In this document: positions 3,797-42,587 of the stretch, piece by piece
Position numbering within the stretch: the first letter of the stretch is position 1
Layout of the letters: each line of letters begins with the position of its first letter
Origin: an uncultured Chloroflexia bacterium
Lineage (GTDB): Bacteria; Chloroflexota; Limnocylindria; Limnocylindrales; CSP1-4
NCBI GenBank assembly: GCA_963748625.1
Contig: CAVVJT010000007.1
Location: forward strand, 1,088,001-1,152,000
Direction: 5' to 3'
DNA length: 64,000 nucleotides
Notes under the pieces: generated by a model
What the model was told of the DNA's origin: nothing
Database searches by the model: none
What the model saw: only the letters and a program-made list of their open reading frames with translations
Position numbers and translations under genes: made by a program

Positions 3797-4014
3797 GCGC
3801 ACGTGACCGGAGGACGCCGCGGACGCCGCGACGCCGGCTGTCGTGGATCGCGCGATCCACGCCCCAGTCCCGCCGCGACGGGTCCCCGGACCGTTGCGCT
3901 CCAGCACGCGACAGGTGTCGACGTCGCGCCACGGCAACGTGAACGCGCAGAACCGCCACAATGCCCGCACCACACCACCGTCCAAGGGGGAGGGCACCGG
4001 ATCCTCCGGAATCC

Positions 4015-7000
4015 ATGAGCGACACGGACCTGCCGGCCGCCGCACGTGCGGCCGGCTCGCAGCACCCGGAGCCCGAGGTGGCGCGGGACCGTCCCGACGC
4101 CTATATCGCGCGCGACCGGCGACGGGCGCTGCATGCCGGCCGGAACCTGCCTGACCGCGTCCAGGGCGCGGCCCTCTTCGCCGACATCAGCGGCTTCACC
4201 CCGCTCACGGAGGCGCTGGCCGGCGAGCTCGGGCCACAGCGGGGCGCGGAGGAGCTGGTCGCCAACATCGGGCGCGTGTTCCACGCCGTGATCGCCGAGC
4301 TCGATGCCTACGACGGCAACGTCATCTCTTTCGCCGGCGATGCGATCACCTGCTGGATCGACGGCGACGACGGCTCGCGCGCGTGCGCGGCGGCGATGGG
4401 CATGCAGGAGGCCATCGCCCGCACCGGCACCATCACCACGCCCGGCGGGACCATCGTGCAGCTCGCGATGAAGGTTGCGGTCGCGGTGGGCAGCGCCCGC
4501 AGGTTCGTCGTGGGCGACCCGGACATCCAGTTGATCGACGTCCTCGCCGGACGCCTGCTCGACACGCTGGCCGCCGCCGAGCACCACGCCGAGAAGGGCG
4601 AGATCGTGCTCGACCAGTCCGTCGTGGCGGCGATCGGGCCACGCCTGGTCCTGGGCGCATCGCGCGAGGATCCCGACACCGAGCGCACGCTACGGGTCCT
4701 GCTCGACCTGCGGGGCGATCTGCGGGGCGACGTGCCGGTCGTGCCGAGCGACGAGCCGGACCCGCTGCCGGACGACGTCGTCAGCCAGTGGCTGCTGCCG
4801 GCGGTGTACGAGCGGATGCGCACCGGGCGTGGCGAGTTCCTCGCCGAGCTGCGCCCGGCGATCCCGATCTTCCTCCGCTTCTCCGGTATCGACTACGACG
4901 GCGCCGAGGATGCGGTGGCCAAGCTCGACGACTTCGTTCGCGCGGCCCAGCGGGTGATGCACGGCTACGGGGGCAACGTCCTGCAGCTGACCCTCGGCGA
5001 CAAGGGCGCCTACCTGTATGGCGTGTTCGGCTCGCCGCGAGCCCACGAGGACGACGCCGCGCGCGCGGCTGCGGCGGCGCTCGAGCTGCGCGACCTCGAC
5101 CGCTCCACGGCCGTCCGGGACATCACGGTCGGCGTGGCGCACGGCCGGCTCCGGAGCGGCTCGTACGGGCATGCCATGCGTCGCACCTTCGTGTGCATGG
5201 GTGACGCGGTCAACCTCGCCGCACGCCTGATGACCAAGGCCCCGCCGGGATCGATCTACGTTGCCGACACCGTCCGTCAGGATGCCGGGGAGGCCTTCAT
5301 CTGGCAGCGCCTGGAGCCCCTCCGCCTCAAGGGCAAGGCAGAGGCCGTGCAGGCGTGGTCGCTGACCGGCTCGCTGGAGGGTGCCTCGCGCCGCAAGACC
5401 CGGTTCGAGTTGGACCTTGTCGGCCGGCTGGCGGAGCTCGAGGTCCTCGACCACGCCCACGCGGGCGCCCTGGCGGGTCGCGGCGCCGTCGTCGGGATCG
5501 CCGCTGAGGCCGGGATGGGCAAGTCCCGCCTGGTGGCGGAGTTCGTGCGCAACGCGCGCCGCGGCGGCCACATGGTCGTCTTCGGGGAATGCCAGGCGTA
5601 CGGCACCAGGACGCCGTACTTCGTGTGGCGGGAGATCTGGCGCCGCCTGTTCGGCCTCGAGGACGAACCGGTCGAGGCGCAGATCGCAACCCTCGAAGGG
5701 CAGCTGGCAGCCGTCAGCCCGGGCCTTGTCGCCCGTGCTCCGCTCCTTGCCGACGTCGTGGGGCTGCCCATCCCCGACACCGACCTGACGCGCAGCTTCG
5801 ACGCCAAGCTGCGGAAGGCCTCGCTCGAGGAGCTGCTCGGAGACGTCCTGCGCGCTCGCGCGGCCGAGGCTCCGTTCGTGGCAGTCCTCGAGGACTGCCA
5901 CTGGATCGACGAGCTGTCCCGCGACCTGCTGCACGGGCTCATCCGGGCGGCGAGCCAGCTCCCGGTCCTGTTCGTGCTCGCCTACCGTCCGGCAACGGAG
6001 CCCGGCGGTGGCCTAGGGGTCGCGGACGAGCCAGGTTTCACCGAGCTCGAGCTGGACCTGATGGATGCCGGCAGCATCGCAGTCCTCGCCCGCGCCAAGG
6101 CCAGCCAGCTCGCCGGCGCCGATGCGGTCGTCAGCGACGACCTGGTGACGCTCGTCGCCAGCCGTGCCGAAGGCAACCCGTTCTACGCCGAGGAACTGCT
6201 CTCCTACCTCGTCGCCCGGGGCGTGGACCTCGCCGATCCCGCCTCGGCAGCGACCGTCAGCGTCCCCGACAGCCTCCACAGCCTCGTGCTCTCGCGGATC
6301 GACGCCGCGGCCGAGAGCCCTCGCCGCACCATGAAGGTGGCCAGCGTTGTCGGCCGGGTCTTCGAGGCGCCGGTGCTGCCAGGCGCGTACGAGGAGCTGG
6401 GCTCGCTCGAGACAGTGGTGGGCGACCTCGAGGCCCTCCGCTCGCTCGACCTGGTCTCGCTCGATCGGGCCGAGGAGCAGGCCTGGATGTTCAAGCACGT
6501 GGTCACCCAGGAGGTGGCCTACGAGAGCCTGCCGTTCGCGCTCCGAGCGGACCTCCACGGGAGGGTGGGGGCCTACCTGGAGCGGCGGGAGGCGCAGGAC
6601 CTCGACCGCTGGGTGCCGCTCCTGGAGCACCACTACTGGCGGAGTGACCGGGAGGACAAGAAGCGCCTGTACCTCCGCCTCGCGGCCGAGGCGGCGCAGG
6701 CGTCCTACGCGAACCAGGCCGCGATCGCGTACTACGACCGGCTGATCCCCCTCCTCGAGGACGCCGAGCAGGTGGACGCGCAACTGAAGCTCGCGAAGGT
6801 CCTGGAGCTGACAGGCGCCTGGGTGCGCTCCGAGGAGATCGTGGGTGAGGCACGAGCCACGGCGGTCGGTCTGGCGGACACCGGCCGCGTTGCCTGGTGC
6901 GACACCGCCCTGGCCGAGGCCGCGCGCAAGCAGGGCCGGTACGACGAGGCCGGTGAACGCCTGGCGGCAGCGCGGGCAGGCTTCGAGGGGGTCGGTGCAG

Positions 7001-7776
7001 ACGACGGCCTCGGGCAGGTGCTGCACCTCGCCGGCACGCTCGCGGCGCAGCGCGGCGACTACGCGGCGGCGCGCGGGCGCTACCTCGAGTCGCTGCCGAT
7101 CCGCCACCGGCTCGGGGATCGCTCCGGTGAGGCCGCGCTCTACTCGAACCTGGGCGTGGTTGCCGAGTACTCCGGCGACTACGCGGCGGCCCGCACGTTC
7201 AACGAGCGCGCCCTCGCGGTGCGCACGGAACTGGGTGACCGCTGGGCGATCGGCGTGTCGCAGAACAACCTGGGGATGATTGCGCTCCATGAGCGGAGGT
7301 TTGCCGAGGCGCGCGCGTGCTTCGAGGAGTCCATGCGCCTCAACCGGGAGGTCGGCGACGCCTGGATGGTGGCGATCGGCCACAACAACCTGGGCAACGC
7401 GGCACGCGGTCTGGGCGACCTCGCGGCTGCCCGGGCGAGCTACGCGCAGAGCCTGCGCGCCTACCAGGCCTACGACGACCGGTGGGCCCTGGCCTTCCTC
7501 CTGGAGGACACTGCGATCCTCGGAGCCCGGCTCGGTGCTGCCGAGCGTGCGTTCGAGCTGCTGGGGGCCGCGGAGACGATGCGGACAGGGATCAACTCGC
7601 CTCGGGGCGCGGCCCTGGAAGAGGAGCTGAACGGCCATCTCGCGCAGGCAATGTCTGTGATTGGCACCGAGCGTGCCAATGCTGCGGTGCTGCGCGGCCG
7701 GAGGCTCGACACCGGGGCGGCGGTCAAGGTGGCATTGGAGCTGTGCCTCGACGCACCGGGTACCATCACGTTATAG
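4015..7776 (+). CDS. Class III adenylate/guanylate cyclase (two catalytic domains) + STAND/AAA ATPase + TPR repeats
   Basis: Domain 1 FADISGFT/FAGDA; domain 2 GDKG/GDAVNLAARL; P-loop AEAGMGKS; Walker B VLEDCHWID; GNPFY; FKH; C-terminal NNLG TPR repeats. Confidence 0.92.
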   Translation: MSDTDLPAAARAAGSQHPEPEVARDRPDAYIARDRRRALHAGRNLPDRVQGAALFADISGFTPLTEALAGELGPQRGAEELVANIGRVFHAVIAELDAYDGNVISFAGDAITCWIDGDDGSRACAAAMGMQEAIARTGTITTPGGTIVQLAMKVAVAVGSARRFVVGDPDIQLIDVLAGRLLDTLAAAEHHAEKGEIVLDQSVVAAIGPRLVLGASREDPDTERTLRVLLDLRGDLRGDVPVVPSDEPDPLPDDVVSQWLLPAVYERMRTGRGEFLAELRPAIPIFLRFSGIDYDGAEDAVAKLDDFVRAAQRVMHGYGGNVLQLTLGDKGAYLYGVFGSPRAHEDDAARAAAAALELRDLDRSTAVRDITVGVAHGRLRSGSYGHAMRRTFVCMGDAVNLAARLMTKAPPGSIYVADTVRQDAGEAFIWQRLEPLRLKGKAEAVQAWSLTGSLEGASRRKTRFELDLVGRLAELEVLDHAHAGALAGRGAVVGIAAEAGMGKSRLVAEFVRNARRGGHMVVFGECQAYGTRTPYFVWREIWRRLFGLEDEPVEAQIATLEGQLAAVSPGLVARAPLLADVVGLPIPDTDLTRSFDAKLRKASLEELLGDVLRARAAEAPFVAVLEDCHWIDELSRDLLHGLIRAASQLPVLFVLAYRPATEPGGGLGVADEPGFTELELDLMDAGSIAVLARAKASQLAGADAVVSDDLVTLVASRAEGNPFYAEELLSYLVARGVDLADPASAATVSVPDSLHSLVLSRIDAAAESPRRTMKVASVVGRVFEAPVLPGAYEELGSLETVVGDLEALRSLDLVSLDRAEEQAWMFKHVVTQEVAYESLPFALRADLHGRVGAYLERREAQDLDRWVPLLEHHYWRSDREDKKRLYLRLAAEAAQASYANQAAIAYYDRLIPLLEDAEQVDAQLKLAKVLELTGAWVRSEEIVGEARATAVGLADTGRVAWCDTALAEAARKQGRYDEAGERLAAARAGFEGVGADDGLGQVLHLAGTLAAQRGDYAAARGRYLESLPIRHRLGDRSGEAALYSNLGVVAEYSGDYAAARTFNERALAVRTELGDRWAIGVSQNNLGMIALHERRFAEARACFEESMRLNREVGDAWMVAIGHNNLGNAARGLGDLAAARASYAQSLRAYQAYDDRWALAFLLEDTAILGARLGAAERAFELLGAAETMRTGINSPRGAALEEELNGHLAQAMSVIGTERANAAVLRGRRLDTGAAVKVALELCLDAPGTITL

Positions 7777-7907
7777 GCCATTCGGCATACTGAAAATGGC
7801 CCAAACGTCACATTACCCGTTGCCGTGACCTCCAAGAACGCGTAGTGTCACGGCCACTCGCGTCCCCGTGCCCTGGACTCGAGCACCTCCGTCACTCGAG
7901 GTTCACG

Positions 7908-10900
7908 ATGCGCTTCCGTCCCGTCCGCTTCGGTCCGACCCATTCCGGCAGCACGCCGAGCCGCGGCAGACCACGGATCGCGAAGCGGGCCGCGTCGCTG
8001 GGCGCTGCCGCGGTCATGGCGGCCACGAGCGTGCTGTCCATCGCGCCGGCGCCGGCGCGCGCGGCCGAGTACATGGTGGTCTCGACCGATGACAGCGGCG
8101 CGGGCACGCTGCGCCAGGCGATCCTCGACGCCAACGCGAGCCCCGGCTCCGATGTCATCTCGTTCGGATTCGAGGGACCCTACCCCCTCGTCATCCAGCC
8201 GGCGACGCCGCTCCCCGCCATCACCGGCAGCGTCACGATCGACGGGTCGATCGGTGGCAATCCCGCGATCCGGCTTGACGGCACCCTCATCGCGGACGTC
8301 GTCGGGAGCCTGAACGAGAACGGCCTGACCCTGAACGGGGGCGCCGGCGGCTCCACGATCACCGGCCTCCAGGTCGTGCGCTTCCCGGACAGCGGCATCA
8401 TGCTCAACGGCGTCTCCGGCGTGACGGTCGAAGGCAACTACCTCGGCACGGACGGCGCGGCCGACCTGGGCAACGGCGGCTACGGGCTCACCCTCTTGGG
8501 CGCCAACGGCAACACCATCCTGGGCAACGTGGCCTCCGGCAACGGCGCCCCGGCGGGCACCGGCGGCTGCTGCTCGGCCGGATTCGGCATCTGGCTGGGC
8601 GACGCGAATGCGGCCAACAACACCATCAAGGGCAACCGCATCGGGACCAACGCCGCCGGCACCGCGGCGATCGGCAACCAGAACTACGGCCTCGAGGTCC
8701 GCTCCCCGGACAACACGATCGGCGGGACCACCGCGGCGGACCGGAACCTCATCTCCGGCAACGGCCGGGGCGTGCACTTCGTCGGCACGACCCTCCAGGG
8801 CAATGTGTTCCAGGGGAACCGCGTGGGCACGAACGCGGCTGGCACGGCCGCGATCGCCAACGGCTCGCAGGCCATCCTTCTCAACGGCACCGACGACGCC
8901 ATCACGATCGGCGGGACCGCCGCTGGAGCCGGCAATCTCATCTCCGGCAACGGGAGCGCGATCATCCTGGGGTCGTCCTCGAACGCGCTGATCCAGGGCA
9001 ACCTGGTCGGCGTCGCCGCCGACGGCACCACGCCGCTCGGCAACGGGGGCGCGGGCGTCACCCTCAATCCCGGCACGAGCGCCACCGTCGGCGGGTCCGC
9101 GGCCGGCGCCGGCAACGTGATCGCCAACAACACCGGGGCGGGAGTCCTGGTCCTCGACCCATCGACCGGCAACAGCATCCTGGGCAACTCGATTCACGAC
9201 AACGGCGCCCTCGGCATCGACCTCGGCAACAGTGGCGTCACGGCGAACGACGCCGGCGACGTGGACACCGGGGCCAACGGGCTCCAGAACTTCCCGGTCA
9301 TCACCTCCACCAGCCCCACCAATGTCGCTGGGACCCTGGACTCCGCGCCGGGCGCCACCTACCGCATCGAGTTGTTCAGCAACACCACATGCGACGCGAG
9401 CGAGCATGGTGAGGGCGCCCAGCTGCTCAAGGTGGCCGTCGGACAGGCCCCAGGGCCGATCGGATTCGACGTCCCGGTGTTCAACGGCACCTTCCTGACT
9501 GCGACGGCCACCAACGAGACCACCGGTGAGACGTCGGAATTCGGCCCCTGCTTCGAGGTCACGGACGCGCTCCCTGCCCCAGGCTCGTGGTCGGCCTTCA
9601 AGAGCGCCACGACCGCCGGCACGTTCATGGCCGCCGGCAACGGTGCCGCCGGTCCGGCGCAGTTCACCTACGACCGCCTCGACCCACTTCCCAATGTGGC
9701 CGACGGCGGCGGGGAGTCCGGCGAGTGGACGTTCTTCACCACCGCGGGCTCGCCAGGGTCCATCACCGTTCCATGGCGCTACACCGGCTTCCACGCCTTC
9801 GCGGGGGTGACCGTCGGCCTGCGTGCCGTCGTGATCCGGGACGGCGACACCGAGGTGTCCAGCGAGGTGCTTGTCGATGCCGGGCCGCAGTCGTGCTGCA
9901 CGACGCCGTCCGCCGGCTTCGACTACACCGGCAGCGCCACGTTCGCGGTCCAGGCCGGCGACGTCTACGGCTTCGAGCTGACCGGCACCAACGGCGACAG
10001 CAACGACACCCTCAAGGGACAGCTCATCCTGGGCACCCAGGTCCCGACGAGCTGCTCCAACGCGCAAACGCTGTACGACACGACGTCCGACGGCCGGTAC
10101 GTCATCCACCCGATCGATGGCCAGCAGTTCTCCGTGTACTGCGACGGCATGAACGACACGCCGCGCGACTACCTGGACCTCAACGTGGAGCGGATCGGCC
10201 AGGGGTACAACTTCGCCTCCTACGACGCGGGCGATTCGCAGGGCACCGACGTCGTCACCAGCTTCACGAAGCTCCGCTTCGACCCGGCGACCCTCCGGGT
10301 GGACATCGGCGACCTCACGTTCGCCACCTCGACCGGCAGCCTGACCCATCCCGACCAGGGCGGCCCACAGACCGTGGCGTCCATGCCGTACGGCGTGGCC
10401 ATGGCCTGCAACAGCGGGGAGTGGGGCGACGGCGCCGCCAACGTGGACCTCTGGGGCACGCCGTTCGCGGTGGACGACGCCTGGGTCCCGCTGGGCACCG
10501 GCTCCGAGTTCTACGGCGGCGCGATCTTCTCGGGTGCGGACCAGACGGTGGACATCACCGCCAACGGCTTCTGCGGCTGGCGGACGCCGGACCCCGCGAC
10601 GTCGTTCTTCGTGTGGGAGACGCCGCCCGGCCAGGCCTACCTGCAGCTGCGCTACCTGAACGCACCCCCGGAGCCCACGCTCGCCACGCCAGTCCTGTTC
10701 GCGTCGGTCACCACGGCGCCGAACACCGCCGACGTGTACGGCCTCGTGGCCGGCGCGGCGAACCAGCACCTCGACCTCGAGATCCACGCCAGCGCGGCCT
10801 GCGTGGGCGGCGTGCTGCAGGATCCCGCACCCGTGATCGGCTCGGCCTCGGTCACGACCGACGCTGAAGGCTACTTCAAGGTGGCCGGCCAGTCCGGCCT

Positions 10901-13900
10901 CCCGTCCGGCAGGTTCGTGGCGGTGCATGTCACGAGCCCTGCCACGACGGATGTCTCCAGCTGCGTCCGCACCAGCGCCGACAACGACTACTGGCCCAAG
11001 GCCCTGGCCCTGGGCAACTCCGCATCGGTGAGCACGCAGGACGTCATCGACGTCCGCGGCAAGGCTCGCTGGTACCGGATCCCGGTCGTGCCCGACCAGC
11101 GCGTCACGGTGCGCCTCAAGAACCTGCCGGCGGACTACGACCTCGCGGTGTTCAAGGACATCGCGAAGGAGTTCGCCGCCCAGCTGGCGCCCGAGGACAC
11201 CACCGACCTGACCAGGCTCTCGGCAGAGTTCGCGCCCTCGGTGTTCAGCCCGAGCGTGTTCAGCCCGAGCGTGTTCAGCCCGAGCGTGTTCAGCCCCGAC
11301 GCCTACGCGCCGTCGGTGTTCAGCCCCTCGGTGTTCAGCCCGAGCGTGTTCAGCCCCTCGGTGTTCAGCCCGAGCGTGTTCAGCCCCTCGGTGTTCAGCC
11401 CGAGCGTGTTCAGCCCCTCGGTGTTCAGCCCGAGCGTGTTCAGCCCCTCGGTGTTCAGCCCCGAGCGTGTTCAGCCCCAGCGTGTTCAGCCCGAGCGTGT
11501 TCAGTGAGGAGGACGTCGCGCGCGCCTTCTCGTCCGCCCAGACACGGAGCCTGATCGGCGTGTCGGCCCAGGCCGGGCCGGGCGACGAGTCGGTCGTCGT
11601 GAACTCGTGGAACAACACGGGCGACGTCTACATCCGGGTCTCCGGCCGCTCCGGCGCCTTCGACCTGGACGGCCTGTTCACGGTCGAGATCGAGAAGTCG
11701 GCCAGCACGTGCGACGGTGTCACCGACACCACGCTCACGCCGCGCGCCGACGCGCCTTCGGCTGGTGTCCAGTCGGTCATCCTCACCGACTCCTCGATCC
11801 TGCAGCTCGGCGACGCGGGCAACCCCGCATCGCTCCGCGCGTCGCTCGACGACTTCATCGCGAGCAGGGAGGTCGCCGGCATCCCCGTGGATGCTCTCGT
11901 GGATGTCGCGGGCGACGTTCGCGTCGGCGAGCTCAAGGCCCAGGTCGCAGCGCATCCGGCCTGCCCGTTCGCCGTCAACCTCCTCGCGGAGGAGATCAAG
12001 GGGATCGTGGACTCGTACCGGGCGAACAACCCCGGCCTGCGCTACGTGACCATCCTCGGCGGCGACACCGTCATCCCGTTCTTCCGCTACCCCGACCAGA
12101 GCCTCCTGGGCCAGGAGTCCGGCTACTTCCCGCCGGTGAAGAGCGACTCGATCTCCGAGGCGAGCCTCCGCAGGGACTACGTCCTCAGCCAGGACGCCTA
12201 CGGCTCCGGCGTGTCGGTCTCGCTCCGGATCAACAGCTTCCCCGTCCCGGGCCTGGCCGTCGGCCGGCTGGTGGAGACCCCGTCCGAGATCGCGGCGCTG
12301 CTGGACGCCTACGTGACGGCCAACGGCACGATCACCCCGGAGACGTCGCTCGTCACGGGTTACGACTTCCTGGAGGACGCCGCCAAGGGCGTCCGCGACG
12401 AGCTCGCCGCCGGCACGGGCACGGCACCCGACGACACCCTCATCACGCCCAACGGCGTCTCACCCAGTGATCCGCAGTCGTGGACCGCGGACCAGTTGCG
12501 GGCCAAGCTGCTGACGGGCGGCCGGCACGACCTCGTGTACCTGGCCGGGCACTTCTCGGCCAACAGCGCGCTGGCGGCCGACTTCAGCACCAGCGTCATC
12601 ACCACCGAGCTTGCAGCGTCGAGCGCGAACCTGGTCAACACGATCGTGTTCAGCGCCGGCTGCCACTCCGGGTACAACCTGCTCGACGCCGAGGCGCTTC
12701 CGGGCGCGTCGCTCCCGCTCGACTGGGCGCAGGCGTTCTCGCAGAAGCGCGCGATCCTGCTCGCCGGGACCGGCTACCAGTACGGGGACACCGACTTCCT
12801 CGAGTACAGCGAGCGGCTCTACCGTGACTTCGCCCGTGAGCTGCGGACCGGCACCATCGGCACCGCGGTCTCCATCGGCGAGGCGCTCCGCAATGCCAAG
12901 CTCACATATCTGTCCACGACCCCCGACATCCGGGGAATCCACGAGAAGGCGCTCCTCGAGGCGACCCTGTTCGGTCTGCCGATGTGGGGCGTGGACATGG
13001 ACGGCCAGCGGACCGGGACCCCGGGAGCCGGCACGGGGATCGCGCCGGCTCCGGTCACGAGCGGTCCCGCCTCGACGCTGGGCCTCGCCACGGCGCCGCT
13101 CCTGATCACCCCGAACCTGGGCCCCCGCAAGACCCTCGACCTCGTGAACGCCCCGTACACCAACCCGGCCGACACCACGACCGCGTCGTGGTACGAGGGC
13201 CCGGGTGGCGCCGTGACCACCAACCCCGCGGAACCGACGCTCCCGCTGCTCGTCCGCAACGTCACCTCGACGACCAGCGGCTATGTCCTGCGGGGGATCG
13301 GCTTCCGGGGCGGCAGCTACACGGACACCTCCGCGGTCACGCCGCTCACGGGTGCCCCCACGACCGAGCTGCGCGGGGTGCACGCACCCTTCGTCTCGCC
13401 CGTCTTCTTCCCGATGCGACCGTGGACGCCGAACTACTTCGGGGCGCTCGGCGGATCGGGTGGCACCAACCTGCTCACGACGCCCGTCCAGTACCGGGCC
13501 GACCCTGCCAACCCGGGCAAGGGCATCGAGCGCAAGTACACGGGCCTGGAGCTGAAGCTGTTCTACAGCAACAACCTCACCACGGCTGCCCTCTCCGAGG
13601 CACCGACCATCGTCAGCGTCGAGGCCGTCCCCGACGGCAGCGATCTCATCTTCTCCGCGGAGGTCGTGGGTGATCCAAAGGCCGCGGTCCACACCGTCTG
13701 GGTGACCTGGACCACCGGGACCGGGACGTGGGCACCGCTCGACCTCGCCCAGTGCGTGGCCCCGCTGCCGGCCGCCTGCGGAACGACGGAAGACTCACGG
13801 ATCTGGCGCGGCCGGCTGCTGAACAGCCCCGCGAACATCCAGTACGTGATCCAGGCCGCGAACGGCCTCGGCATGGTGTCGCTCAGCGACAACCTCGGGG

Positions 13901-15435
13901 CGTACTTCGGCCAGGCGGCTGCGGCCCCGTCGGCGGCGACCCTCGAGCTCGTCGATCCGCCCACCTCGGGCACCTTCGGCGAGACGAGGCCTGTCACCGT
14001 GCGGCTGACCTCGGGCACGACCGATGTCGGCGGCCGGACCGTCTTCGTCACCATCGGCGGCACAACCGCCTCGGGCACGACGGACGCGAACGGGCGCACA
14101 ACGGTCAACGTGCCGCTGAGCTCGCTGCCGGGTGCGACCCAGGTGAGCGCCTCGTTCGGCGGTGACGACACGTATGGCGCGGCCTCGGCGCCGGGCCAGC
14201 CGTTCAGCATCGGGAAGGCGGCGAGCAGCCTGGCAGTCACCGCCGGACAGAACCCGGTGGATTACGCCGCCGGCACCACCGTCAGCGCCACCCTCTCGAG
14301 CGGCGGCACGCCGCTGCTCCAGCGGACGGTCGCCTTCCTCGTCACCGCGCCGGGAGGGTCGACGACCCTCGCGTTGCGGACGACCGACTTCACCGGCAAG
14401 GCAACCCTCAACCTGCCTTCGGGGACCGTCGGGTCGTACGGGGTCGAAGCCCGCTTCGGGTCCGTGGTCAACGTCCCCGGCGGCGGCACGGTCGACCTGA
14501 CCGACGCGACCTACGGAGCGGCGGCGCAGGAGGTGACCGTGACGATGACGGCCGCGACCGTGACGACCGTCACGCTGGTGCGGTCGCCGCAGCCGTACGT
14601 GTACGACAGTTCCCCGTTCGGGGCGACCGCTGGCGTCACCGGCCCGGGACTCGACACGACCCTCAGCCCAACCTATACGGGTACGACCTTCGCCGGCAAC
14701 GTCTACGGCCCGACGGCCACCGCTCCGACCGATGCCGGCAGCTACCGGGCGACCGCAACCTACGCCGCCAGCGGCGGCTACGTCGCCAGCGAGGCCTCCG
14801 TCGACTACGTCGTCGGCAGGGCTGCCTCGACGGTGACGCTGACCCTCAACGGCACCTCGCCGTTCCCGTTCGACGGCCAGCCGCACGGCGCCACAGCCGT
14901 CGCGTCGGGGGTCGGCGGTCTCAACGTGCCCCTGACCGTGACCTACTCGGGCACGGGCTCGACGGTCTATCCATCGACGACCACGGCTCCGACCGCCGCG
15001 GGCTCCTACATCGCACAGGCCACCTACCTGGGCGGATCCAACCACACCGGCAACGCGGCCAGCGCCGCATTCACCATCGTGCCGTGGCCGTTCACCGGGT
15101 TCTTCGCCCCGGTGGACAACCTGCCGACGCTGAACACGGCGACGGCGGGACAGACGATCCCCGTCAAGTTCAGCCTGGGGGGCAACCGGGGCCTGGCGAT
15201 CTTCCAGCCCGGCTACCCCAGGGCCGTGACCGTCGCGTGCCAGGCGAACGCCACGCTCGACGTCATCGAGGAAGTGTCGACGGCCACGACGAGCGGGCTC
15301 CAGTACGACGCCACGACGAACCGCTACCAGTACAACTGGAAGACGGCCAAGACCATGGCGGGCAAGTGCTGGCAGCTCCAGCTCGGCCTGAAGGACGGCA
15401 GCACCGCCGCCCTGGCGAACTTCAAGTTCAAGTAG
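7908..15435 (+). CDS. Large secreted multidomain protein (~2508 aa if one extra C at 11459-11462 is removed): signal peptide, parallel beta-helix, GON-like, split PPC-like, C25-like peptidase, Ig/MBG, PxKF domain
   Basis: ORFs 7845..11507 and 11467..15435 join inside the repeat. Motifs: signal ending APARA; DDSGAGTLRQAI; GNRIGTNAAG repeats; VILGGD-like TILGGDTVIPF, AVGRL, AGHF, SAGCHSG; PTDAGSY; C-terminal IPVKFSL. Start codon uncertain (ATG 7908 follows GAGG). Confidence 0.8.
11235..11505 (+). repeat. Coding pentapeptide tandem repeat, 17 PSVF(S) units (4 + DAYA interruption + 13)
   Basis: GTGTTC recurs every 15 nt (4 copies at 11241-11291, 13 at 11316-11502). Units alternate AGCCCCTCGGTGTTC and AGCCCGAGCGTGTTC, giving a 30 nt higher-order period. 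Confidence 0.97.
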
Positions 15436-16159: not shown

Positions 16160-16855
16160 TTACTCGTCCTTCTTCGCGCGAGTCGTGCGCTTCTTCGGCG
16201 CCGCCTCGGTTGTCTCGGTCTCGGCGGCCGACTCATCCGCGGGGGAAGCGTCGGCCTCGGGGGCGTCGGCCTCGGCGGCCTCGGTGGCCTCGGTGGCCTC
16301 GGCGACAGCTTCGGCCTCAGGGGCCTCGGCGGGAGCGGCCTTGGCGCGGGACTTCTTCGGGGCCGGGGCCTCTTCGGTGGCTTCCTCGGCGGGCGCCTCG
16401 GCCTCCGCCGGAGCGGCGACCTTGAGCGACGCGGCGAGAGCAGCGTCCTGCGCAGCCTGGCGGGCGGCGGCCTCTTCGATCGCCTTGCGGTCGTCAGCCT
16501 GCTTGGGTGCCTTCTCCGCCTTGTCCTCGGCCGCGCTCTTGCCACCGAACGTGATGTCGGCGATGCGCAGGACCGTCAGCTCCTGGCGGTGGCCCTTCTT
16601 GACCCGGCGACGGGCCTTGGGGCGGTACTTGAACGCGATGACCTTGTCACCACGAATGGCGCCGACGACGTCGGCCTGGACAGTTGCGCCGTCCACGATG
16701 GGCTTGCCGACGGCGGCAGTGTCCCCGTCGACAACGAGGAGCACCCGGTCCAGCGTGATGGACTGGCCGGCCTCCACGTCAAGCAGCTCAACCTCGAGCT
16801 GGGTGCCGACCTCGACGCGGTACTGCTTCCCGCCGGTCTCGATGACTGCGTACAT
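16160..16855 (-). CDS. rplU: 50S ribosomal protein L21 with long Ala/Glu-rich C-terminal extension
   Basis: MYAVIETGGKQYRV...KKGHRQELT; GAGG RBS; 231 aa. Confidence 0.95.
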   Translation of the reverse strand: MYAVIETGGKQYRVEVGTQLEVELLDVEAGQSITLDRVLLVVDGDTAAVGKPIVDGATVQADVVGAIRGDKVIAFKYRPKARRRVKKGHRQELTVLRIADITFGGKSAAEDKAEKAPKQADDRKAIEEAAARQAAQDAALAASLKVAAPAEAEAPAEEATEEAPAPKKSRAKAAPAEAPEAEAVAEATEATEAAEADAPEADASPADESAAETETTEAAPKKRTTRAKKDE

Positions 16856-17021
16856 GGGTCCTCGGAAGAGCGATAGCGGCCGCGGGGCGACCGCGACTTT
16901 GACATGGTGAAGCGCCGACGGCCATCGCGGGCGCGAAAGGGGAGTGTAGGACGGATGCGCGAGGACCGTCAACGCTCCCGCCGGCGCGTGGTGGCCGTGC
17001 TGTTGAGCGCAGCCCGGGCGC

Positions 17022-41465: not shown

Positions 41466-42587
41466 TGGATGCCGCTTCCCTGAAGGACCTCGCCGAGCGG
41501 ATCCGGGCGACCTCGGGGCGTCTTTGACTTAGCCGCCAAGGAACAACGCGTCGCCGCTCTCGACGAGCGCGCGCTCGAGCCCGGTTTCTGGAACGACCAG
41601 CGCTCCGCGCAGAAGGTCGTCCGCGAGGCCCAGGGCCTCCGCGACGAGATCGAGCTCTGGACCGGGCTGCAGAAGCGGGTCGCCGACCTTGAGGAGCTGC
41701 TCATGCTGCTCGAGGACAGCCCGGACCCCGAGACCGAGGCCGAGGTCGCCCGCGAGGCTGATGCCCTGGCCGTGGACTTCGCACGCGAGCGCACGCTGCT
41801 GCTGTTCTCAGGTGACTACGACAGCAAGAACGCGGTGATCTCGATCAGTGCGGGTGCCGGCGGCACCGAGGCCACCGACTGGGCCGAGATGCTCGAACGC
41901 ATGTACCTGCGCTGGTGCGAGCGCCACCGCTTCAAGGCCGAGGTCATCGACTGGCAGCCGGGCGAGCAGGCGGGCATCAAGAGCGCCACGATCCAGGTCA
42001 CCGGGCGCTTCGCGTACGGCTGGCTGCGCGTGGAGCGCGGCGTCCACCGGCTGGTCCGCATCTCCCCGTACGACGCCCAGAACCGCCGCCAGACCACGTT
42101 CGCGCTGCTCGAGGTGATGCCCGAGGCGGACGACGACGTGGCGATCGAGCTCAACTGGGACGAGATCCGCGTGGACACGTTCCGCTCATCGGGCGCGGGC
42201 GGCCAGCATGTCCAGAAGACGGAGTCCGCGATCCGCCTGACGCACATCCCCACCGGCATCGTGGTCGCGTGCCAGAACGAGCGTTCCGCAACCCAGAACC
42301 GTGAGATCGCGATCCGGGTCCTCAAGTCCCGCCTCCTGGAGCTGGAGCTGGAGAAGCGCGAGGAGGAGCTGCGCAAGCTGCGCGGCGAGCATGTGACGGC
42401 CGGCTGGGGCAACCAGATCCGCTCCTACGTCCTGCACCCGTACCAGATGGTCAAGGACCTTCGCTCGGCCCACGAGACATCCAACACGGGCGCAGTCCTC
42501 GATGGCGACCTCGATCCCTTCATGCAGGCCGAGCTCGACCGTCTCGCGACCGGCCGGCCCGCCGCCGAGGTCGGCGACGACGACTGA
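41465..42587 (+). CDS. prfB: Peptide chain release factor 2 with programmed +1 frameshift
   Basis: GTG 41465 runs to CTT TGA C (41522-41528); the +1 frame continues DLAAKEQR... into ORF 41703..42587 with GAGGTEA, ISPYD and GGQ. Confidence 0.96.
41515..41528 (+). promoter_or_regulatory. prfB programmed frameshift cassette
   Basis: GGGG (SD-like), 3 nt, then CTT TGA C: the canonical RF2 autoregulatory arrangement. Confidence 0.93.

Follow-up and report, generated by a model that had tools for sequence, protein, structure and literature searches.

Tandem pentapeptides in a loop of a predicted bacterial C25-type protease are maintained at the peptide level

Why would a bacterial protease repeat the same five residues again and again just ahead of its catalytic domain, and what keeps the copies identical? 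The question arises in a stretch of 64,000 nucleotides from an uncultured Chloroflexia bacterium (contig CAVVJT010000007.1 of assembly GCA_963748625.1, positions 1,088,001 to 1,152,000), which we call the window and which was analysed as a whole. It holds a gene for a predicted secreted protease in which tandem PSVFS units form a loop of one domain. Arrays in other genomes point to selection on every unit, and we lean, tentatively and at somewhat less than an even chance, towards a flexible loop that displays many copies of one short motif under selection, each recognised by a partner that evolves with it.

The array and selection on its units

As assembled, the gene is split into two open reading frames (ORFs) that meet within the array:

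7845..11507, + strand: ORF1, the N-terminal part of the split protease, with a signal-like N-terminus, a right-handed beta-helix (residues 160-347), a GON domain (residues 734-792), the N-terminal half of a PPC-like (pre-peptidase C-terminal) domain and part of the array (ORF list, domain search)
11235..11505, + strand: 15-nucleotide tandem units, 17 PSVFS and one PDAYA, in two alternating codon versions
11459..11462, + strand: CCCC run, the +1 frame break that splits the protease gene (unit-by-unit reading)
11467..15435, + strand: ORF2, the C-terminal part, with the last three units, the C-terminal half of the PPC-like domain, a C25-fold catalytic domain, Ig-like domains and a C-terminal PxKF domain (ORF list, domain search)

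Tandem Repeats Finder places the repeat at 11235-11504 with a period of 30 (9.0 copies, score 403) and also with a period of 15 (17.5 copies, score 298), and reading it unit by unit gives 17 PSVFS and one PDAYA, in the order four, break, thirteen. An earlier note on this DNA had reported the tandem repeat, which both readings recover, and had counted 17 units in blocks of 4 and 13. That count stands when the array is read through, but the note missed the frame break, and as assembled ORF1 has in frame only 14 PSVFS units and the PDAYA break, the last three units being in ORF2. The unit starting at 11460 has 16 bases, and the CCCC run at 11459-11462 is one base longer than the run at every other unit junction; because this extra C shifts the frame, the gene appears as two long + strand ORFs in different frames, of 1220 residues (7845-11507) and 1322 residues (11467-15435). 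After the shift ORF1 ends in ...SPERVQPQRVQPERVQ*, with its TGA at 11505-11507. We read through the break with a four-letter step (GAGC as S), and both the count of 17 (4 + 13) and the LIGVSA motif that follows depend on that step. With 15 bases in this unit the intact protein would have 2,541 residues.

The units are not copies of one DNA sequence. The two main DNA versions of the PSVFS unit are CCCTCGGTGTTCAGC, found six times, and CCGAGCGTGTTCAGC, found seven times. The Pro-Ser codons are CCCTCG in six units, CCGAGC in seven that end in AGC and one that ends in AGT, and CCGTCG and CCCAGC in one each, so that all four codon pairs listed by the earlier note are present; one more unit of the CCGAGC type holds the extra C. 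A degenerate two-unit DNA pattern had 13 matches in the 4.6-Mb genome, all of them within the array, and its reversed control had none.

The same holds in other genomes. Across 61 arrays the median number of identical units is 15 and that of the DNA versions encoding them nine, with 3.5 differences per 15 bases, and not one array has a single DNA version. Compared with each array's own consensus, 5,155 codons show 1,519 synonymous and 207 non-synonymous differences, break units included. Four arrays from the same genus as the window encode 15-16 identical SGSGF units with 6-10 DNA versions, among them serine switches between TCN and AGY. Codon comparison shows purifying selection acting on the peptide at every unit, and the earlier note's proposal that the repeat is maintained at the protein level is borne out by these 61 arrays. 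At the same time a tree of 181 proteins requires 80 or more changes of unit type, and some arrays mix units that are one substitution apart. Judged from these sequences, neutral slippage does not produce uniformity within a protein together with turnover between proteins, a combination that argues for a constraint from something that reads each unit. We also looked for covariation of unit residues with catalytic-domain columns and set the result aside as too weak, with just nine independent pairs on supported branches.

The loop and its form across the family

The segments that flank the array are as follows:

11067..11153, + strand: N-terminal beta-strands of the PPC-like sandwich (RWYRI...DYDLAVF; AlphaFold2 model, fold search)
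11154..11234, + strand: helical neck before the array (KDIAKEFAAQL...DLTRLSAEFA), whose AEF motif is conserved in the family (model, alignment)
11506..11718, + strand: helix after the array (EEDVARAFSSAQTRS) and C-terminal strands of the sandwich, up to a conserved Cys (model, fold search)

In an AlphaFold2 model of the read-through domain, made with a 21-row alignment, the flanks on both sides of the array form strands with a predicted local distance difference test score (pLDDT) of 89-97, and helices bracket the array at model residues 51-59 and 166-180. A VIA-align run against 48,161 chains matched this model to the following chains:

3afg_B and 9ues_B, Tk-SP C-terminal jelly roll: Z 10.9, 97-98 residues aligned
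3jqw_A, ColH collagen-binding domain: Z 9.9
5sv5_A, pre-peptidase C-terminal domain of a Bacillus collagenase: Z 9.7, 92 residues aligned, target length 105
1nqd_A, ColG collagen-binding domain: Z 9.3

All these alignments cover model residues 1 to about 232. Both halves are used in one fold, and the array is therefore a loop insertion; the model supports two flanks that form a single beta-sandwich of the PPC/collagen-binding type, with the array as a loop of about 100 residues. The earlier note had placed the repeat between the halves of one PPC-like domain, a proposal that turned on the flanks folding together, as they do in AlphaFold2 and VIA-align. The motifs that it named in the flanks are also there, RWYRI and DYDLAVF at 11067-11153 and LIGVSA and DVYIRVSG at 11548-11646, all on the + strand, but the second pair lies beyond the frame break.

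The fold places the domain with PPC domains on matches of Z 9.3-10.9, whereas its sequence stays below the Pfam threshold. The Pfam PPC profile (PF04151, cut-off 25.9 bits) had no match at E<=10 in the read-through domain, relatives matched only the first half of that profile and below its cut-off (P0163 at 20.2, L017 at 15.9 and L012 at 16.0 bits), and Foldseek of the PPC-like model against the PDB gave nothing at E<=0.001. The likeness to the PPC and collagen-binding domains of collagenases and subtilases is a beta-sandwich that aligns over 91-98 residues at Z 9.3-10.9. Unlike them, the domain in the window lies mid-protein, directly N-terminal to the catalytic domain and not at the C-terminus, and a helical neck and the array interrupt it. 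The array itself had a pLDDT of 43-51 in the domain modelled alone and of 26-30 next to the catalytic domain, with no strands in either case. It is probably flexible, a reading of low AlphaFold2 confidence, which is no proof of disorder.

How far does this arrangement extend? The 500 residues after the array, used as query, matched 2,736 representative clusters at E<=0.001, of which 1,139 also passed E<=1e-30. A second search listed 1,130 proteins with widely different N-terminal modules; across the family these are binding-type domains (beta-helix, Kelch, DUF642, VWA), and some homologues bear source names such as 'C25 family cysteine peptidase', 'PxKF domain-containing' or 'choice-of-anchor C/Q'. 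The family is common in soil, sediment and freshwater bacteria, and its matches form 494 stretches among genomes of 185,579 species.

The repeat is a feature of the position. In 187 of the 193 members of a set of 250 homologues that include the region upstream of the match, a tandem repeat ends exactly where the match begins, which settles in its favour a point on which the earlier note's proposal also hung. Its period is 5 in 172 proteins, 10 in 14 and 8 in one, and the remaining six have a weak repeat or none. In a second set with both flanks present (n = 81) the period is 5 in 71, 10 in six, 7 in three and 12 in one. Heptad and octad arrays occur at the site, and two proteins have non-identical inserts of period 5. 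The consensus is [S/A/T]-P-x-x-[F/Y/W], with 54 unit types among the 181 arrays whose main unit has five residues; counted over these 54 types the positions, numbered from the aromatic, hold:

Position -4: S 31, A 13, T 8
Position -3: P 46, G 5
Position -2: D 19, S 16, A 5, E 4
Position -1: A 22, V 6, M 5, Q 5, I 5
Position 0: F 40, Y 10, W 4

Within the genus of the window alone the unit types are PSVFS, GSGFS, APPAY, APPSY, IGNPSY and IGNSSF. The layout of four units, a break and thirteen units is kept in homologues whose catalytic part is from 77% to 55% identical, and Paraglaciecola aestuariivivens WP_447133031.1 has the same 4 + 13 layout with PSVFS itself. The SAQ motif in the flank after the array is conserved in the family, like AEF before it.

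Two observations on the distribution of the family belong here. On a tree of the catalytic part (loci L034-L112; Chloroflexota 39, Actinomycetota 17, Pseudomonadota 17, Verrucomicrobiota 1) the phylum label changes at least eight times, the minimum possible being three, and PSVFS arrays arranged as in the window are present in records that bear the titles Limnocylindrales, Gaiellaceae and Betaproteobacteria. This cross-phylum distribution suggests either transfer of a gene pair between phyla or mis-binned contigs. There is also a paralogous PxKF/C25-type clade (L021 from genome G004, with P0253-P0372), in which both flank profiles were found in six of 120 proteins. Five of the six have a non-repetitive, Pro-rich insert of 37-69 residues in this same loop, and the distant P0359 has about 20 GGFQM/GAYQM pentads. 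Several members of this clade are named pentapeptide-repeat proteins (YjbI) by their sources.

The host gene, its frame break and its neighbours

Three further features are needed to describe the protein and the gene beside it:

3961..7776, + strand: partner gene, encoding a cytoplasmic protein of 1271 residues with two class-III cyclase-type regions, an AAA_16 (STAND) NTPase and C-terminal tetratricopeptide repeats (TPRs) (domain search)
11776..12993, + strand: gingipain-fold (C25, clan CD) catalytic domain, with candidate His at 12550-12552 and Cys at 12661-12663 (homologue model, conservation)
15094..15432, + strand: PxKF domain (NF038114, 123.8 bits, cut-off 35)

The catalytic domain was recognised through its homologues. 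ORF2 of the window had no match to Pfam Peptidase_C25 (PF01364) at E<=1; in five homologues with 60-70% identity to ORF2 the profile is matched almost from end to end, at 32-47 bits (cut-off 23). The fold was modelled with AlphaFold2 on the PPC-like and catalytic part of P0002, a 75% identical homologue (pLDDT 78.5, predicted template-modelling score (pTM) 0.79), and Foldseek matched this model to RgpB and Kgp (4ief_D, E 6.3e-11; 1cvr, 2.7e-10; 4rbm, 1.6e-7), then to separase and CHAT proteases. The putative catalytic His (in GHF) is present in 248 and the Cys (in GCHSG) in 250 of 250 homologues, and both are present in the window as candidates by conservation. The earlier note had placed a protease domain with a catalytic Cys next to the array, and a domain of this kind, with a conserved Cys, does follow it. 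Searched by sequence, the PDB gave no match with the single protein and only repeat proteins, no peptidase, with the family profile, and the ESM Atlas gave no usable match with residues 540-675 of P0002. The Ig-like domains ahead of PxKF in ORF2 score below threshold, and matches to Pfam Extensin_1 were discarded as low-complexity and far under the cut-off. On these models, the best explanation of the host is a cysteine protease with predicted activity and a gingipain (C25) fold, secreted, built of many domains and about 2,500 residues long.

The gingipains RgpB and Kgp share with it the catalytic fold (Foldseek E 6e-11 to 1.6e-7), the His/Cys pair, the C25 profile in close homologues, and the plan of a secreted multidomain protein with Ig-like domains after the catalytic part. 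They differ in that there is no sequence match to the solved gingipains, and that a PPC-like sandwich with a repeat loop stands where gingipains have an N-terminal prodomain; variable N-terminal modules, a C-terminal PxKF and the pairing with a cyclase-STAND-TPR protein also set the family of the window apart. That position raises the idea that the PPC-like domain and its loop are a built-in pro-region, in which the loop would cover the catalytic cleft, as pseudo-substrate or latency belt, until it is removed or displaced at activation. The RgpB prodomain reportedly carries an inhibitory loop (in the literature on PDB entry 4IEF), the domain stands exactly at the prodomain's place, directly N-terminal to the C25 domain, the two-domain model reaches a pTM of 0.79, and PPC domains of other proteases are removed on maturation. 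We nevertheless consider this quite improbable. AlphaFold2 gives the loop no place (pLDDT 26-30), the RgpB prodomain chain is absent among the 50 entries listed for the PPC-like model, the loops of orthologues differ widely in charge where one conserved cleft would have to be fitted, and a single inhibitory segment would not require 20 identical copies.

What does the frame break say about the gene? We treat it as either an assembly error or a recent inactivating mutation, not as a designed feature. Public short-read contigs from four runs over 10700-12200 end inside the array, and none spans 11459-11475 in register; one contig in which a base seemed left out at 11465 was dismissed as evidence, being a relative's 5' array edge placed on the wrong unit. 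The other long genes inspected in the window, for SecA (1047 residues), the cyclase protein (1271) and a PBP (633), are single ORFs with full-length domain matches, and the assembly therefore has no visible abundance of errors here. Among genomes of the same genus, four (G013, G016, G028 and G031; loci L015, L019 and L028-L032) have frame breaks or an in-frame TGA in the protease gene, the cyclase gene or both, and locus L015 has several frame breaks inside one array; in those genomes the breaks are likely base-level assembly errors. Programmed frameshifting and phase variation were considered for the window and found no support: reading the sequence brought up no stimulatory element, the run is only four bases long, and the frames of relatives are intact. 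Rfam over 10500-12200 returned a single row at chance level (E 0.98).

A broken frame inside an array also invites the view that the repeat has no function, being a slippage-prone microsatellite in a tolerant loop of a gene that is dead in this genome. With this query, 24 of 36 genomes of the same genus gave no protease match, and short arrays of five or six units exist, which would fit such a view. We hold it to be extremely improbable, as the identical units are scrambled in their codons, their count and layout are held across phyla with conserved AEF and SAQ flanks, and in this very gene the catalytic residues are intact and GC content at third codon positions (GC3) is 0.93 in both halves. 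The short arrays (L099 and L105, with inserts of 29 residues) are either truly short or collapsed in short-read assemblies; the unit of L105 is SPAAL, with Leu in place of the aromatic.

The partner gene lies upstream of the protease gene in the window, and its product has no membrane-like segment. It adjoins the protease gene in all 11 loci of the same genus that we examined, and among 36 genomes of that genus the cyclase orthologue was found in exactly the 11 that have the orthologous protease, kin that do not count as independent cases. In loci from other genomes the cyclase protein of the window was matched in 62 of 79, mostly near full length; three other neighbours of the window (ABC2, L21 and DUF2344) were matched in none. 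Clustering of ORFs across loci gave two widely shared families, the protease (79) and the cyclase protein (60), with the next best at 12, and no peptide permease conserved nearby. Where the full 10-kb flanks were available, the cyclase gene was present in 42 of 49 loci (same strand upstream in 26 and downstream in 12, opposite strand in four), and the pairing within 10 kb spans four phyla.

Is the partner itself a member of a described system? It matches TIGR03903 (TOMM system kinase/cyclase fusion) over residues 324-939 at 170.8 bits (E 3.8e-50), far from the cut-off of 705.75, and shares with it the cyclase-NTPase-arm region, but it has no kinase domain and no TOMM genes nearby, so that we do not count it as a member; judging by its name, TIGR03903 is tied to peptide natural-product loci. 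The partner is also nearest to a TPR family associated with ribosomally synthesised and post-translationally modified peptides (RiPPs), far under the cut-off. PADLOC gave weak PycC and TPR matches for the partner and none for the protease, and we did not adopt the label of a defence system for the gene pair.

Two genes elsewhere in the window deserve mention. A release-factor-2-type gene at 41703-42587 (+ strand) matches Pfam PCRF only from profile position 62 onwards, and about 180 bases upstream of its listed start is the sequence CTTTGAC (41522-41528, + strand), which resembles the classical prfB programmed +1 frameshift site. The ORF for ribosomal protein L21 at 16160-16972 (- strand) encodes 270 residues, of which only residues 40-140 match Pfam L21; either the protein carries a long additional tail or its start has been placed too far upstream in the ORF list.

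What may read the units

The reading that we prefer takes the array as some 20 copies of a short linear motif, [S/A/T]-P-x-x-aromatic (here SPSVF), on a probably flexible loop of about 100 residues that exits and re-enters the PPC-type sandwich through the helical neck, directly ahead of the catalytic domain. Every copy would be read alike by a partner whose preference shifts between lineages, and it is because of such a reader, we propose, that units are identical within a protein and different between lineages. We infer both the specific reader and any cleavage of the loop. As reader we would rank first the protease's own cleft, which would cut after the aromatic, making the loop a built-in multi-copy substrate; second the TPR sensor of the neighbouring cyclase-STAND-TPR protein, which would bind released peptides or the unexported precursor; and third an external ligand. 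A well-known array that works in this way is the C-terminal domain of RNA polymerase II, whose YSPTSPS heptads form a tandem array with an aromatic, Ser and Pro, identical in peptide and varied in codons, with a count typical of the lineage and low predicted order. The array of the window, in our reading, works like that tail, and unlike a plain linker, without being a member of its class: it is bacterial and extracellular, has a period of 5, sits in a loop of a protease domain, and has a unit that differs between close lineages.

Several observations weigh against this reading, beginning with the unit itself and the partner. Arrays without aromatics exist, with units such as PSMLS, PGAPS and PGSPS that have Leu or Pro instead, and the net charge of the loop runs from about 0 (PSVFS) to about -19 (PDAFS), which is hard to fit to one conserved docking surface. 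In the AlphaFold2 model the loop is not docked against the catalytic domain. Seven of the 49 full loci have no cyclase gene nearby, and in the whole genomes of five of these, three have a full-length or weaker relative elsewhere (one just beyond the flank) and two have no orthologue at E<=1e-50. Weakly in favour of the reading, a partial Mantel comparison of unit distance with sensor divergence, controlling for the core, gave r 0.26 for the arm (p 0.003), 0.23 for the TPRs (p 0.049) and -0.13 for the N-terminus over 45 protease-cyclase pairs (the window and 44 loci); phylogeny was not controlled, and the link is therefore a hint only.

The remaining points against this reading concern length and fold, and they speak at the same time for a solenoid. 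Aromatic-ended units number exactly 20 in 81 of 181 arrays (the mode) and 18-21 in 133, and 42 of 64 arrays from named genomes have 20. The insert has a median length of 90 residues (n = 197, interquartile range 85-94, with modes at 90 in 43 and 94 in 40), and the distance from the A that follows AEF to SAQ is 99 residues in arrays of many unit types, including mixed ARGAR/SPDAL arrays (P0392, P0426). The conserved copy number also counts in favour of a selected array. A count so close to 20 and an exact 99-residue length would suit a folded element or a ruler and would not be required of a substrate or precursor. At the array site of two loci in the genus of the window, L017 (922-1707, genome G013) and L018 (859-1689, genome G033), there are about 20 hexapeptides (IGNPSY and IGNSSF). 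These two arrays exceed the cut-off of Pfam Hexapep (PF00132; 42.0 and 35.6 bits, cut-off 27), a beta-helix class, and no period-6 array was found among 81 further relatives. Below threshold, the GSGFS array matches Pentapeptide_4 (20.7 bits, cut-off 38) and the arrays of P0040 and P0410 match Decapeptide and Pentapeptide_4, and against the PDB the family profile finds the IcmE/DotG decapeptide region (E 1e-6) and the pentapeptide-repeat domain of SV2C (E 0.12-0.5). Like Hexapep, these pentapeptide and decapeptide repeats belong to classes that form beta-helices.

In such a solenoid the pentads would stack as in the pentapeptide-repeat (Rfr-type) helix, 20 units making five coils of four, and the hexads as in a left-handed beta-helix. 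Ladders would be regular where the units are uniform, and a constant count, sharply centred over 54 unit types and with the length retained even in heterogeneous arrays, would make a rod of constant length that stands out from the PPC-like domain, possibly for binding or oligomerisation. We regard this as unlikely, if a serious competitor. AlphaFold2 predicts no strands in the array, and its pLDDT there is low in both models. The earlier note had offered a solenoid or fibre, beside cleavable peptides and an autoinhibitory bait, as possible functions, and the AlphaFold2 models show no solenoid. The array of the window shares with pentapeptide-repeat proteins (PF00805/PF13599) a period of 5 and a central aromatic followed by Ser, and relatives have sub-threshold matches to them (20.7-26.9 bits, cut-off 38). 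It differs in having no match to the pentapeptide families at E<=10 (nor to Hexapep, at the same limit), Pro in every unit, a polar residue two before the aromatic, identical units and no predicted strand helix. The core pattern of pentapeptide repeats is A(D/N)LXX, and neither register of the array fits it, position -2 being D, E, Q or N in 28 of 54 types with Pro fixed at -3. Arg occurs at the aromatic position (in ARGAR units), and at this site there are also arrays of period 7-8. Exposed positions in known solenoids normally vary between rungs, whereas all five positions of the unit are held here; and scores from hidden Markov models are inflated when driven by repeats.

If the loop is flexible, it need not be read at all. 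It might be an uncleaved aromatic brush or tether, with regular aromatic stickers and Ser/Pro spacers, which would bind a polymer, a surface or substrate proteins near the active site, or self-associate, with no sequence-specific reader. The low predicted order of the loop fits this, as do conserved aromatic, small and Pro residues beside x-x positions and a charge that vary freely between lineages, periods of 5, 6, 7 and 8 at one site with a similar total length, and the binding-type modules at the N-terminus of the family. We doubt it nonetheless, without thinking it far-fetched. Generic stickers and spacers would not need identity at all five positions, the excess of synonymous over non-synonymous differences points to a sequence-specific constraint, and a brush would leave the conserved cytoplasmic partner gene unexplained.

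If motifs that are read, as we prefer, are also released, the protein might be a self-processing poly-pheromone. Once the protein is exported, the gingipain-fold domain or other exoproteases would cut after each aromatic and free about 18-20 identical pentapeptides (SPSVF), which the TPR sensor of the STAND-cyclase protein would bind after uptake, making cyclic nucleotide; the units would be 'pherotypes' that co-evolve with the sensor. We think this specific form rather unlikely. Known counterparts are multi-copy peptide precursors and signalling peptides sensed by TPR proteins, such as the yeast alpha-factor precursor and RRNPP systems of the Phr/PapR type. The locus would work like these without being one of them: it shares many identical short peptides within one secreted protein, sequences specific to the lineage and a neighbouring gene for a cytoplasmic TPR protein, and it differs in that the 'precursor' is an enzyme of 2,500 residues, the copy number is fixed, and the TPR protein combines a STAND NTPase and cyclase domains and is no RRNPP regulator.

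A full-text search, as judged from titles and the beginnings of abstracts, turned up nothing on this family, the array, the pairing or the PxKF domain in proteins. The kind of enzyme is known, that of the C25 cysteine peptidases; for the array and its cyclase pairing we could find no described counterpart. If the units are folded, they would form a new minimal solenoid, and if they are read or released, they would represent a new signalling or regulatory principle for secreted proteases. As poly-pheromones they would amount to a novel way of signalling, between cells or about protease activity, that spans Chloroflexota, Actinomycetota, Pseudomonadota and Verrucomicrobiota. Whichever holds, the array shows exact repetition under strong selection in an extracellular protein of bacteria.

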